DNA from: Eledone cirrhosa
Taxonomy: Eukaryota
Assembly (NCBI GenBank): GCA_964016885.1
Contig: OZ024763.1
Location: forward strand, 5,580,001-5,644,000
DNA length: 64,000 nucleotides
Direction: 5' to 3'
The notes beneath the pieces are model-generated. The model was not told where the DNA came from. It made no database searches and saw only the letters and a program-made list of their open reading frames with translations. Each line of letters opens with the position of its first letter. Position 1 is the first letter of the stretch. The position numbers and the translations under genes were made by a program. Shown here piece after piece: positions 1,839-25,000 of this stretch.

Positions 1839-2044
1839 AGATGATGCATGACATACCCTGACTAAGTAGATGATTAAAAATCAGTCATGGCAGTGATGTG
1901 TAACCTTTAAATATATATATATATATATATATATATATATATATATATATATATAAGTTTATCCCGTGTTCAATCGGGGGTAACCACAGTAAGTAAGGTA
2001 CTCAATAATACATAGCAGAGTATAAATATTTAATATAGAAATGG

Positions 2045-2091
2045 CTTCTACAGGACTAGAACTGTTTCATTCTGGAGAAAACATCAGGAAG
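2045..2091 (-). ncRNA. Degenerate hammerhead (A9>U), family-1 element 1958-2096
   Basis: CTTC-CTGATGt-tTTC tcca GAAt-GAAA-CAG ttctagtc CTGT-A-GAAG; homologous to the 17760-17975 and 22073-22210 elements. Confidence 0.55.
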
Positions 2092-2116
2092 TCCATATAT
2101 ATATATATATATATAT

Positions 2117-19000: not shown

Positions 19001-22000
19001 CTTCAGTGGTTAGGGTGTTGTTTGGTGGTATGGCGAGTTCCCTCAGTAGTTAGGGTGTTGTTTGGTGGTATGGTGGCCTCCCTCAGTGGTTAGGGTGTTG
19101 TTTGGTGGTATGGCGAGTTCCCTCAGTGGTTAGGGTGGTGTTTGGTGGTATGGTGGCCTCCCTCAGTGGTTAGGGTGTTGTTTGGTGGTATGGTGGGTTC
19201 CCTCAGTGGTTAGGGTGTTGTTTGGTGGTATGGTGGCCTCCCTCAGTGGTTAGGGTGTTGTTTGGTGGTATGGTGGCCTCCCTCAGTGGTTAGGGTGTTG
19301 TTTGGTGGTATGGTGGCCTCCCTCAGTGGTTAGGGTGTTGTTTGGTGGTATGGCGAGTTCCCTCAGTGGTTAGGGTGTTGTTTGGTGGTATGGTGGCCTC
19401 CCTCAGTGGTTAGGGTGTTGTTTGGTGGTATGGGGGGTTCCCTCAGTGGTTAGGGTGTTGTTTGGTGGTATGGTGGGTCTCCGCAGTGGTTAGGGTGTTG
19501 TTTGGTGGTATGGTGGGTTCCCTCAGTGGTTAGGGTGTTGTTTGGTGGTATGGTGGCCTCCCTCAGTGGTTAGGGTGTTGTTTGGTGGTATGGTGGGTTC
19601 CCTCAGTGGTTAGGGTGTTGTTTGGTGGTATGGCGAGTTCCCTCAGTGGTTAGGGTGTTGTTTGGTGGTATGGTGGGTTCCCTCAGTGGTTAGGGTGTTG
19701 TTTGGTGGTATGGTGGGTTCCCTCAGTGGTTAGGGTGTTGTTTGGTGGTATGGTGGGTTCCCTCAGTGGTTAGGGTGTTGTTTGGTGGTATGGTGGGTTC
19801 CCTCAGTGGTTAGGGTGTTGTTTGGTGGTATGGCGAGTTCCCTCAGTGGTTAGGGTGTTGTTTGGTGGTATGGTGGGTTCCCTCAGTGGTTAGGGTGTTG
19901 TTTGGTGGTATGGCGAGTTCCCTCAGTGGTTAGGGTGTTGTTTGGTGGTATGGTGGCCTCCCTCAGTGGTTAGGGTGTTGTTTGGTGGTATGGCGAGTTC
20001 CCTCAGTGGTTAGGGTGTTGTTTGGTGGTATGGCGAGTTCCCTCAGTGGTTAGGGTGTTGTTTGGTGGTATGGTGGCCTCCCTCAGTGGTTAGGGTGTTG
20101 TTTGGTGGTATGGCGAGTTCCCTCAGTGGTTAGGGTGTTGTTTGGTGGTATGGTGGGTTCCCTCAGTGGTTAGGGTGTTGTTTGGTGGTATGGCGAGTTC
20201 CCTCAGTGGTTAGGGTGTTGTTTGGTGGTATGGTGGGTTCCCTCAGTGGTTAGGGTGTTGTTTGGTGGTATGGCGAGTTCCCTCAGTGGTTAGGGTGTTG
20301 TTTGGTGGTATGGTGGCCTCCCTCAGTGGTTAGGGTGTTGTTTGGTGGTATGGCGAGTTCCCTCAGTGGTTAGGGTGTTGTTTGGTGGTATGGTGGCCTC
20401 CCTCAGTGGTTAGGGTGTTGTTTGGTGGTATGGTGGCCTCCCTCAGTGGTTAGGGTGTTGTTTGGTGGTATGGCGAGTTCCGTCAGTGGTTAGGGTGTTG
20501 TTTGGTGGTATGGTGGGTTCCCTCAGTGGTTAGGGTGTTGTTTGGTGGTATGGCGAGTTCCCTCAGTGGTTAGGGTGTTGTTTGGTGGTATGGTGGCCTC
20601 CCTCAGTGGTTAGGGTGTTGTTTGGTGGTATGGCGAGTTCCCTCAGTGGTTAGGGTGTTGTTTGGTGGTATGGTGGCCTCCCTCAGTGGTTAGGGTGTTG
20701 TTTGGTGGTATGGTGGGTTCCCTCAGTGGTTAGGGTGTTGTTTGGTGGTATGGTGGCCTCCCTCAGTGGTTAGGGTGTTGTTTGGTGGTATGGCGAGTTC
20801 CCTCAGTGGTTAGGGTGTTGTTTGGTGGTATGGTGGGTTCCCTCAGTGGTTAGGGTGTTGTTTGGTGGTATGGCGAGTTCCCTCAGTGGTTAGGGTGTTG
20901 TTTGGTGGTATGGTGGCCTCCCTCAGTGGTTAGGGTGTTGTTTGGTGGTATGGTGGGTTCCCTCAGTGGTTAGGGTGTTGTTTGGTGGTATGGTGGCCTC
21001 CCTCAGTGGTTAGGGTGTTGTTTGGTGGTATGGCGAGTTCCCTCAGTGGTTAGGGTGTTGTTTGGTGGTATGGTGGGTCCCCTCAGTGGTTAGGGTGTTG
21101 TTTGGTGGTATGGGGGGTTCCCTCAGTGGTTAGGGTGTTGTTTGGTGGTATGGTGGGTTCCCTCAGTGGTTAGGGTGTTGTTTGGTGGTATGGTGGCCTC
21201 CCTCAGTGGTTAGGGTGTTGTTTGGTGGTATGGTGGGTTCCTTCATTGCTACCCATGGTTACCTTCAGTCCTCCCCTCTTACTTGTTCCTCTAAGCTCAG
21301 TGCATTAGGCCTTAAATACCAGCCGGGGTAAACCAAATTAATAAATACAGATAGATAATGTTTTATTTGAAAAGAATGCACATGGCCACGTGGCTAGTTT
21401 ATTGGAGTCACAATTATAAGGTTGTCGGATTCCTAGACTCCAACATACTACATTGCTTCTTCTGCTAAGATTTGTCACTTGGCTTAATCAGCACATTTCT
21501 TCTGCCAAGAGATGTCTCCAGCAGACAGTATCAGCAATAGAAAAAACAATTGAAACATTGTTTTCTATGACTGGCATGCACAGAAATTAGGTAATGTTAT
21601 TAAATATTACTTAATTGGCTCAGAGTAACCTCATCGGCGGGGAGTTAGCCGATTTTCACTTTAGCTACAGCAAGTGTGACTAGAGCTTGGCTAGCAAACT
21701 TTAACTACTTTTTTCATGTGTTGCTATATTTTCGTTATAGGTACAGCAAGTGTGGCTAGAGCTTGGACAGCAAATTTTAATTCTCTCATTGATAATGTAG
21801 TTATTGATTACTTCAACTCAACTATGCCAATGAATGTTCCATATCTATCAAGGTATCCAGACTTCCTGGCATTTGGTCTTATAGCTTTGTTGACAGGTAA
21901 ATATCACTTTTCCTCTCTCTCTCTCTCTTATATATATGTATGTATACACACACACACACACACACACACACACACACACACACACACACACACACACACA

Positions 22001-25000
22001 CTCACACCCACACTCACACTCACACACACTCACACACACTCACACTCACACACACACACACACACACACACAGGTAAGTTATTCCGGGTTGAATCGGAGG
22101 TAACCACAGTAAGTAAGGTACTCAATACATAGCAGAGTATAAAAGTTTTAATATAGATGAGATTCTACACGACTAGAACTGTTTCATTCTCTAGAAATCA
22201 TCAAGAATCTGGCTTTCCAAAAATAAATGTTGTGGTATTTATATCTTTTCAGGTGGTAGGAGAGGGTGGGGAGTGGGATGGGTGGAGGTCATTGGTTGAA
22301 AGAAAAGGGAATTCATTAAAAGCTAATTCTTTAAGTCTATAGTTTATATTTAGAGTGACAAAGGCAAAAAGGATTCTATAAACAGGTTCAGAATGGGGTG
22401 CCACTCCTTATTTTTAAGTTTCTCTTAAACTAACAATGCCTATATTTCAGGTGTCTATAAAATGGTTGTGGGTCGGTCATGGTTGATGGATTTAAAGAAA
22501 AGGGAAATTCTTTAAAAGCTAATTCTTGCTTGCTTGCAAACAAATAAAATATTATTATTCGATATAAAACTCCTAAAGACATTTATGTATCTGCTATGTG
22601 AGAGCGAGAAATCTAATTCTAATTTTGTTTTTTATTTTCGGCAAGGCCAGCCGTAAAATCACTTCATATGCAAATGGAACTAATCAGACGATGTATACTT
22701 TAGAAAATACTATATACAGTTGTCCCTTGGTATTCGCAGAAGTTACATTCCGAGAGCACCTGTAAAATACAGACCGGCAAATACAGTTTATTGTTATTAA
22801 TAATTTAGCGTTAAAAAGCCATTAAAAAAAATTGTGGAAGATATTTACGATTCCACGAATATTCAGCCATGTAGAGCGATAAACTATTTGTTATATATAT
22901 ATATATATATATATATATATATATATATATATATATATATATATATATATATATATTGTTATACTTTGGGAGGGTCATGTTGCCAATAAGAAACACATGC
23001 ACCAGTTGCTTTCACTTCAATTTATTATATATTTATAAATTTATAAGTTTACAAATCTACAAACCTATAAATTTCTGGTTGGTTGGTTGGTTCCACAACC
23101 AGATAGTTGTTTATATATATATAAACAACTATCTGGTTGTGGAACCAACCAACCAACCAGAAATTTATAGGTTTGTAGATTTGTAAATTTATAAATTTAT
23201 AAATATATAATAAATTGAAGTGAAAGCAACTGGTGCGTGTGTTTCTTATTGGCAACATGACCCTCCCAAAGTATAACAATATCGGTTTCAACACACGATT
23301 TCAGATAAAGAATCTTGCTAAACAAATTCAGAAACGAAATATATATATATATATATATATATGATAAACACTAATACAAGTATATAAGTGTTTGTATTGC
23401 AAATGACCAAGTTAGCTAGATTGAAAAATACTAATTAAATTAATACAGTTTGCCTGTCTCGATTTAAAATAATAAATCAATAAAAACAAACCTATATTGG
23501 CAACAGCTGTGATACCCGGACAAATTTAAATTTCAAAACTCAAATTTGTTTCGCAACAATAAGTGAAAATTTGAGTTTTGAAATTTAAATTTGTCCGGGT
23601 ATCACGGCTGTTGCCAATATAGGTTTGTTTTTATTGATTTATTATTTTAAATCAAGACAGGCAAACTGTATTAATTTAATTAGTATTTTTCAATCTAGCT
23701 AACTTGGTCATTTGCAATACAAACACTTATATACTTGTATTAGTGTTTATCATATATTCATTTGTAGTACACGGCTCAGAAATATCTCTTTCTTTGAGCT
23801 ATTTAATTGTAAAAGACTGTTTGAGTTTATAACTCTATGTATATATATATATATATATATATACATATATTCATATATACATATATATATGTATATATAT
23901 ATATATATAAATTAAAAAACAATGAGTCAATACACTTTTACACTACACATGTTTCAGTTGATAGTTTCATCCTAAGGATGTGAAGTTACAGAATCAGAAA
24001 TTAAAAAAATTTTTTTAAAAAGATTTTTCTTAATTTCTGATTTTGTAACATCACATCCCTGGGATAAAACTGTATCAGCTGAAACGTGTGTTAGTTTAAT
24101 AGAAGATTGACTCTGTTTTGTAATCTTTATATATCAGCTCTATGTGAACCCCAGTGTATCGAGCTTTAAACCCTCTGGTAAAGTTTATACCCAATAATAA
24201 CACTACCTGCCAGATAGTCCACGCTGTAATGTGGCCGTGTAGGTAACACAGTAAAAACCTCCCAGCCCCACACTGTAAATGTGGTTGGTGTTAGGAAGGG
24301 CATCCAACTGTAGAAAACCCGCCAGACAGTCCTATGCGAGCAAGACAACCACTCTTGCCTCAAGTGGGAAAACTCCCGTCCAAACCCATGCAAGCACGGA
24401 ACACGGACGTTAAACGATGATGATGATGATGATGACTGTTATTATTATTAATATTATATATACATAAATTGAGGTTGGTGTTAGGAAGGGCATCCAGCTG
24501 TAGAAATCAAGCCAGAATCAGTTCCCATCCCACCCTTGCAAGCAGGACGTAAAATGATGATGATGATGATGATGATATATAATTTTGTTATTTGCAGTTC
24601 TGCTAACAGTTGGTGTAAAACAGTCAACATTCTTCAACAATATCTTTACTTTAATAAACCTCCTTGTCCTCATCTATGTCATTATTTGTGGATTCTTCAA
24701 AATCAATCTGGAGAACTGGCAAATTGATTCAAAGCAGGTAAAATTCTTTTTCTTATTGTTATCAGTGGATTGGCAGTATCGGTAGAGGAGGGTCGGACGC
24801 CATGCTTTGCAGCATAGAGTTACGGCCCTTTACCGTCTAAGTTAAAATCCCACCGAAGTTAACTTTGCCTTTCATCCTTACAGGGTCGATAAAATAAAGT
24901 ACCAGTAACATACTGGGGTCGATTTAATCGACTTTCCCCTCCTCCCAAATTACTGGCCTTGTGCCTATACTAGAAATTATTACTGTTATTCTTATCAGTG

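Follow-up and report, generated by a model that had tools for sequence, protein, structure and literature searches.

A very-high-copy hammerhead repeat of Eledone cirrhosa as a likely solo pseudo-LTR of a Penelope-like retroelement lineage

We describe a repeat of about 135-140 nt, present in very high copy number, that was found in a 64,000-nucleotide stretch of DNA from Eledone cirrhosa (GenBank assembly GCA_964016885.1, contig OZ024763.1, positions 5,580,001 to 5,644,000 of the forward strand; the whole stretch is hereafter called the window and is numbered from its first letter). Three parts make up the repeat: a type I hammerhead ribozyme motif, a middle block that is conserved, and a hairpin near the 3′ end. 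It likely represents the solo pseudo-long terminal repeat (pLTR), that is the 3′ end unit, of a Penelope-like element (PLE) lineage of retroelements; we put the probability of this explanation as a whole at about 0.7. Membership in the PLEs is likely, the open reading frame (ORF) that defines them, with reverse transcriptase (RT) and GIY-YIG, having been searched for in the 64-kb window only.

Three copies of the repeat lie on the minus strand of the window: copy 1 at 1955..2093, with (TA)n on either side, copy 2 at 17758..17895, with (TA)n at its 3′ end, and copy 3 at 22073..22210, with (TG)n at its 3′ end. Pairwise alignments of 127-139 nt show 81.6-85.8% identity (E 1e-30 to 1e-37), and each copy ends in a minus-strand hammerhead, which confirms the report of a first-pass annotation of this DNA. 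The ends are identical in all three copies, with no circular permutation, and a microsatellite is present at the insertion in all three (tandem-repeat masking covers 27,977 of the 64,000 bases of the window). The 5′ part of copy 2 is duplicated in inverted, head-to-head orientation at 17897..17972 (+), with 98% identity over 64 nt and an end on (TA)n; an aborted fold-back of about 12 nt sits between copy 2 and the duplicate proper (17908-17972), which holds a second intact hammerhead at 17908-17958 (+). This fourth, inverted hammerhead and the 3′ hairpin had been overlooked in the first pass.

The hammerheads of copies 1, 2 and 3 occupy 2043..2093, 17845..17895 and 22160..22210 (all on the minus strand), with predicted cuts 5′ of 2048, 17850 and 22165, respectively. 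In minus-strand order they consist of stem I, the CUGANGA core, U[UUC-4 nt-GAA]U, GAAA, CAG-8 nt-CUG, UA and again stem I, giving three helices with the ends in stem I, and 37 of 39 cells are paired for the 13 helix pairs in the three copies. The type I core is C3 U4 G5 A6 N7 G8 A9, G12 A13 A14, A15.1-U16.1 and H17 (PMC3088659), and it is complete in two of the four window motifs, namely those of copy 2 (CUGAAGA, GAAA, UA) and of the inverted duplicate. Two copies carry single core changes, as had been noted, A9U in copy 1 and C3U in copy 3; pairs are broken as well, by an A·C mismatch in stem I of copy 1 and by a mismatch in stem III of copy 3. The C3U of copy 3 was also considered as a compensated U3-A8 core variant, which was ruled out by the retained G8. 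Loop II reads UCCA, AUCU or UAGA across the copies with the flanking UUC/GAA unchanged, again as claimed before; the base of stem II is U10.1·U11.1 in all four window hammerheads, in place of a Watson-Crick 10.1-11.1 pair. The loop of helix III is palindromic (CUAG/ACUAGU, with ACUAGU in copy 2). Using a relaxed descriptor, four motifs were detected in the window as compared with a mean of 0.075 (maximum 1) in 40 local shuffles, indicating that the hammerheads are not there by chance.

Near the 3′ end of the repeat there is a 4-bp hairpin, located at 1963..1978, 17765..17780 and 22083..22098 (all on the minus strand) in copies 1, 2 and 3, respectively, and spanning +68/71 to +83/86 from the predicted cut (+71 to +86 in copy 1). 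Copies 1 and 2 have the stem CCCG/CGGG, and copy 3 has UCCG/CGGA, its outer pair U-A replacing C-G in a compensatory manner; the loop is 8 nt long with 5-7 A or C (5/8 in copy 1, and 7/8 in copy 2 with the loop ACUCAACC). Taking the hammerhead and the hairpin together, 49 of 51 pair cells are paired in the three-copy alignment (17 pairs), the loops being variable, and double changes are found in three of the 17 pairs, two in stem I (C-G/A-U and G-C/G·U/A-U) and one in the 3′ hairpin, while slid structures gave no double change. Stem I of copy 3 carries two A-U replacements; the compensatory C-G to A-U change claimed for stem I in the first pass is real, but the AGCTTC then quoted belongs to the inverted duplicate at 17908-17958 (+), copy 2 itself having GGCTTC/GAAGCT.

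In order to view the family beyond the window, public reads of four of the 17 listed runs were aligned to the 440-nt stretch 22061-22500 at 80% likeness, with the small-share rows of organisms C-K excluded. In run X1, as many as 8,982 contigs aligned to this stretch, and the summed depth reached 1.0-1.8 million over 22091-22195, with 10,821 and 19,232 in the adjoining outside bins; summed contig depth is not a copy number, but the depth is concentrated on the element, and the family is very large with two sharp edges, contrary to the 'small' family of the first-pass annotation. Of 1,918 raw reads in run X15, 1,765 carry C3, as does 50,635 of the 52,993 contig depth in X1; 3,228 of 3,313 reads keep the pair in stem III, and both features are also kept in X4, a run of a second organism (32 contigs). 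Thus C3U and the stem III mismatch of copy 3 are minority states family-wide, and at these two positions the family majority is intact and does not depart from CUGANGA/GAAA. Loop II positions are variable (1,995 and 562 of 2,587 reads). The intact majority core and the pairs kept while loops vary speak in part for the earlier proposal of selection for ribozyme structure. At the 3′ hairpin, the outer pair varies on both sides in the compensating direction (473 of 1,310 and 1,419 of 2,594 reads); in X4 both changes stand at a depth of 37 with two contigs each, and these equal depths suggest that the two changes are linked.

These data bear on the proposal that the repeat spreads at the DNA level, as a foldback, as a miniature inverted-repeat transposable element-like (MITE-like) unit or with the microsatellites, its hammerhead likeness being an unselected relic. 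Such a repeat would be at home among the many long palindromes of the window, and the hammerhead is never the minimum-energy fold, but terminal inverted repeats were not found in copies 1 and 3, the polarity toward the microsatellite is fixed, pairing is kept with three double changes between variable loops, and the majority core is intact in two organisms, so that we consider it highly improbable.

Loose ends in the reads agree with the ends in the window. The 3′ loose ends are microsatellite in all four runs, as expected from the claim of insertion in microsatellites, which the three window copies bear out; in X15, 423 reads end at 22078 and 488 at 22079. They are spread over about 22072-22092, and a discrete tail of 30-40 nt, an optional PLE 3′ tail, was not seen among them. 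Measured from the predicted cut, the three window copies end at +93 and most reads at +87/+88. The 5′ loose ends are heterogeneous (78 contigs, agreement 0.41) and mostly halt at stem I of the hammerhead. Opposite-strand joints within the element, found in two runs, account for eight of the 15 joint rows counted (out of 25 joint rows; 106 variant and 479 loose-end rows stand outside the counts), and seven of these eight end at 22189 or 22207, indicating that fold-backs at the hammerhead recur. Two other joints step back by 77-78 nt, one with 26 reads (8 starts) and one with 38 reads (11 starts), and represent tandem hammerheads. The 77-78-nt head-to-tail hammerhead tandems (window 22141-22223) lie at other loci of the extended form that is described below. 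An excess of extended copies in X15 was discounted, because 459 molecules stop at 22313, where there is a GAATTC site, consistent with enrichment by restriction.

Tandem hammerheads are what a classical retrozyme of the non-LTR kind (LTR, long terminal repeat) would leave, with head-to-tail source arrays, monomers cut by the hammerhead and circularised, and dispersed copies made from circular RNA. In line with this explanation are the presence, within a short non-coding repeat, of a type I hammerhead that has helix III, the U·U found at the helix II base of the axolotl retrozyme motif HHR_Amex2 (PMC7229834) and the range of retrozyme monomer fractions, from 0 to 1, reported together with an argued derivation of retrozymes from pLTRs (10.64898/2026.07.22.740005). 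The search for tandem copies suggested in the first pass, however, gave only these 77-78-nt partial units: a joint from the 3′ end to the 5′ end of the whole unit is absent from the 15 of 25 joint rows counted, and none of the three window copies is tandem. The same two ends recur in all three copies instead of being circularly permuted, and they lie at stem I and beyond the hairpin, away from the cleavage site. We therefore regard a retrozyme origin as unlikely.

The evidence is better accommodated by the solo pLTR of a PLE lineage, and the Penelope-like anatomy proposed in the first pass is supported. The polarity is fixed, with the hairpin end abutting (TA)n or (TG)n and the whole ribozyme retained in the copies. 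The observed 5′ ends cannot have come from self-cleavage, after which the core would have stayed behind, and the retention of the whole ribozyme indicates that the template RNA was likely uncleaved. In agreement with this, the depth in X1 is not reduced on the core side of the cut (1.33 versus 1.07 million, a comparison blurred by linker indels), and a minority of cleaved templates may be compatible with it. In the mechanism that we propose, a Penelope-type RT/GIY-YIG protein would nick a microsatellite, target-primed reverse transcription would begin just 3′ of the A/C-rich hairpin, and the uncleaved RNA would be copied through the entire ribozyme until copying halts, or folds back onto its own complementary DNA, at stem I. 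As a monomer the ribozyme should be weak; we predict that it works in source elements or tandem copies as a dimer formed via the palindromic loop III, and most dispersed copies would be decaying offspring. The source RNA may belong to an autonomous element or to a short non-autonomous unit, and the repeat, proposed in the first pass to be non-autonomous, may instead be what a 5′-truncated longer element leaves of its 3′ end. The stem III plus loop self-duplex is predicted at -14.2, -16.6 and -8.2 kcal/mol for copies 1, 2 and 3, respectively; together with the non-minimal monomer fold given below, this fits the dimer-dependent cleavage described for PLE hammerheads (PMC4209133, PMC6765202).

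That stem II closes with U·U is likely a matter of design rather than of decay, as judged from the occurrence of this module in complete hammerheads elsewhere. U10.1-U11.1 has already been described as a natural hammerhead variant (PMC3088659), and HHR_Amex2, which has U·U at the base of helix II, cleaves weakly as a monomer and well as a dimer (PMC7229834). A pattern of the core plus the U·U-closed UUC/GAA stem II, both fixed in the search so that stem II identity is by construction, gave 17 loci in metagenome and viral contigs, of which 10 are distinct. Stems I and III are complete (at least 4 bp) in five of the 10 distinct loci, four of type III and one of type I, and incomplete in the other five. 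The complete ones are L001, L002, L003 (= L011, L012, L014, L016), L006 (= L010) and L013 (= L017), and the four of type III among them may be mutually related. Exact 27-nt and 22-nt patterns of the element itself gave no match in viral and metagenome contigs. At gathering score, Rfam gave no hammerhead in the four of the 17 pattern loci that were scanned, two of them complete hammerheads, and Rfam scans of 1900-2700 and 17755-17905 likewise returned no hammerhead family; matches to microRNA families, all under the gathering score, were set aside as hairpin or microsatellite artefacts. Given this stem II, descriptors that demand a 10.1-11.1 pair, and Rfam in this case, overlook the entire family.

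Several observations weigh against assignment to the PLEs. G10.1-C11.1 and an extra base after A9 are given as conserved in metazoan PLE hammerheads, and the window hammerheads of the repeat have neither; in the same source this consensus is a ribozyme trait with exceptions and no definition of PLEs, and its supplementary motif alignments may already contain U·U variants (PMC4209133). Rfam gave no hammerhead match in the window among the best 150 of 220 matches. The autonomous RT plus GIY-YIG partner, for which the first-pass annotation had recommended a search, was not found: Pfam scanning of 256 window reading frames (254 plus two long ORFs) detected no GIY-YIG, and the two RT remnants that were detected are unlinked to the element. 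No open frame begins in the unit, its three ATGs meeting stops within five codons. The three double changes were equalled in 37 of 500 shuffles (n = 3 copies), so that the covariation claimed in the first pass is present in three of 17 pairs but is suggestive and not significant. The read tables carry no linkage, and the invariance of U·U and the linkage in stem I are known from the window copies only. The hammerhead is the minimum-energy monomer fold in none of the four motifs, with folding z-scores of -0.3 to -1.3. Finally, the match in spacing to the lizard element PAc, set out below, rests on one characterised element.

The RT remnants raise one more alternative, a short interspersed element (SINE)-like repeat moved by an RTE- or R4-like long interspersed element (LINE), with the hammerhead as an inherited passenger. 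LINE RT remnants are indeed present in the window, at 11434-11868, within 11434-12042 (-), and at 57480-58937 (+), and a fixed 3′ end in simple repeats generally suits LINE-driven SINEs. The unit, however, is similar within the window only to its own copies and to one sister family and matches no LINE 3′ end, Rfam found no tRNA, 5S or 7SL head, and head-to-head fold-backs at the hammerhead are PLE features (PMC8557442, PMC3846280), all of which makes a SINE quite unlikely. As to the remnants themselves, the one at 57480-58937 is an open frame of 486 codons that contains C2H2 fingers; it has 530 relatives, with best identities of 54-57%, and relatives of LINE type are among them. The two remnants are presumably R4-like and RTE-like.

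Copies 2 and 3 are located in introns of, and antisense to, a plus-strand amino-acid permease gene, the exons of which lie at about 16400-36440 (+) and match Pfam AA_permease, AA_permease_2 and AA_permease_C; presumably the gene is similar to those for cationic amino acid transporters. The inverted duplicate is in sense orientation with its core intact, but in the predicted fold a hairpin with copy 2 locks it (-107.6 kcal/mol), and cleavage of the host pre-mRNA by its hammerhead is unlikely according to this folding model. On the strand antisense to the hammerhead, which is the sense of the host gene, there are splice-donor-like words at 22071-22079 and 22106-22124 (+): CAGGTAAGT in copy 3 and, in the block that is invariant across the three copies, CAGTAAGT together with AAGGTAC.

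A longer form of the element likely exists. The upstream extension of copy 3, 22211..22540 (-, outer limit approximate), is repetitive with a non-triplet repeat unit of about 196 nt, runs on into the hammerhead across 22213 in 841 reads, sequence variants among them, and its unit reappears as a go-back joint in three of the four runs. The X1 bin directly upstream of the hammerhead has about 1.4% of the depth over the hammerhead. As the length of the unit is not divisible by 3 and Pfam gave no family match in its frames, the extension is likely an untranslated part of this longer form. A sister family has five copies in the window, at 2549-2687 (+), 35228-35331 (+), 44295-44361 (+), 55650-55727 (+) and 45034-45330 (-), which have the GTATTGAGTAC block in common with the element, the same (TA)n polarity and variable 5′ truncation; GAAA, a stem with palindromic loop and UC are present in it, and CUGANGA was not found. 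The longest sister copy shares 36 nt (89%) with the upstream extension of copy 3, the single match in a global alignment of the two extensions.

Other repeats of the window include a 121-nt fold-back (94%) at 2116-2260, beside copy 1, with a different hammerhead-like motif on the plus strand (core 2182) that has U at both stem II base positions and its 5′ stem I strand replaced by inversion. At 9900-9950 (-) there is a near-canonical Penelope-type minimal hammerhead with an extra A after A9 and G10.1-C11.1, the first 28 nt of which are repeated at 36451-36478 (-). Long palindromes at 22957-23340, 23363-23751, 23911-24124, 29917-30119 and 18192-18243, with arms up to 99% identical and some of them by (TA)n, are possibly fold-back insertions of other elements.

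It is known that animal genomes abound in Penelope remnants with hammerheads, and the finding itself is therefore unsurprising. A description of this family was not found in the literature searched, which included few subscription papers and no repeat databases, and the family may already be catalogued. The useful additions are the covarying 3′ hairpin, at a distance like that in PAc, and the evidence for an uncleaved template. How reverse transcription of PLEs starts, and what purpose the hammerhead serves, are questions for which a single in vitro system exists; with its thousands of variants, its covarying hairpin at the matching distance, its sharp ends and its many fold-backs, the family could be used to test both by alignment alone, and the 3′ hairpin offers a testable candidate for the site of initiation. 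More tentatively, the unit of about 135 nt might be a self-standing minimal Penelope parasite, its tandems nascent mini-retrozymes and its hairpin a general PLE signal for RT initiation, a reading that we consider doubtful. If it were true, a hammerhead plus an RT-start hairpin would suffice, with an uncleaved RNA template, a 5′ limit set by the ribozyme fold and a very high copy number attained, and the position of a covarying A/C-rich hairpin would be conserved from a lizard element to an invertebrate one.

Among known systems, the repeat is most readily compared with the solo pLTRs of endonuclease-positive (EN+) PLEs (Penelope/Poseidon, Neptune). Solo and opposite-strand hammerheads with a palindromic helix III have been described for PLEs (PMC4209133), as have inverted 5′-truncated copies, head-to-head palindromes and a bias to microsatellites (PMC8557442, PMC3846280). 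In common with them, the repeat has a type I hammerhead whose helix III loop is palindromic, dispersed motifs that are mostly single, pairs on opposite strands, a head-to-head inverted 5′ copy, microsatellite targets and compensatory changes. Unlike the EN+ PLE hammerheads described, it has U10.1·U11.1 instead of G10.1-C11.1 and no extra base after A9, a stem II of 3 bp as compared with 6-8 bp, and a stem III of 3 bp with an 8-nt loop; a linked ORF, typical of EN+ PLEs, was not found in the 64-kb window.

[quoted passage not shown] Similarly, our repeat has an A/C-rich stem-loop about 70-90 nt downstream of the hammerhead cut, at the 3′ end of the element, its copies retain the whole hammerhead, and the target is AT-rich. 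The two differ in that the PAc ORF starts in stem II of a minimal motif whereas the unit described here starts no ORF, and they are compared by layout, not by sequence.

With metazoan non-LTR retrozymes the repeat shares a short non-coding unit with a type I hammerhead, likely dimer-dependent cleavage and, in the case of HHR_Amex2 (PMC7229834), the U·U at the base of helix II. Retrozymes are head-to-tail with circular RNA, whereas the copies found here are monomers with fixed ends and fold-backs, tandems being limited to the partial units. The U[UUC-loop-GAA]U stem II beside the core is also found in the U10.1-U11.1 variants (PMC3088659) and in the five complete metagenome and viral loci; four of these five are type III hammerheads outside animal repeats, unlike the element, and common descent is not implied by the resemblance.

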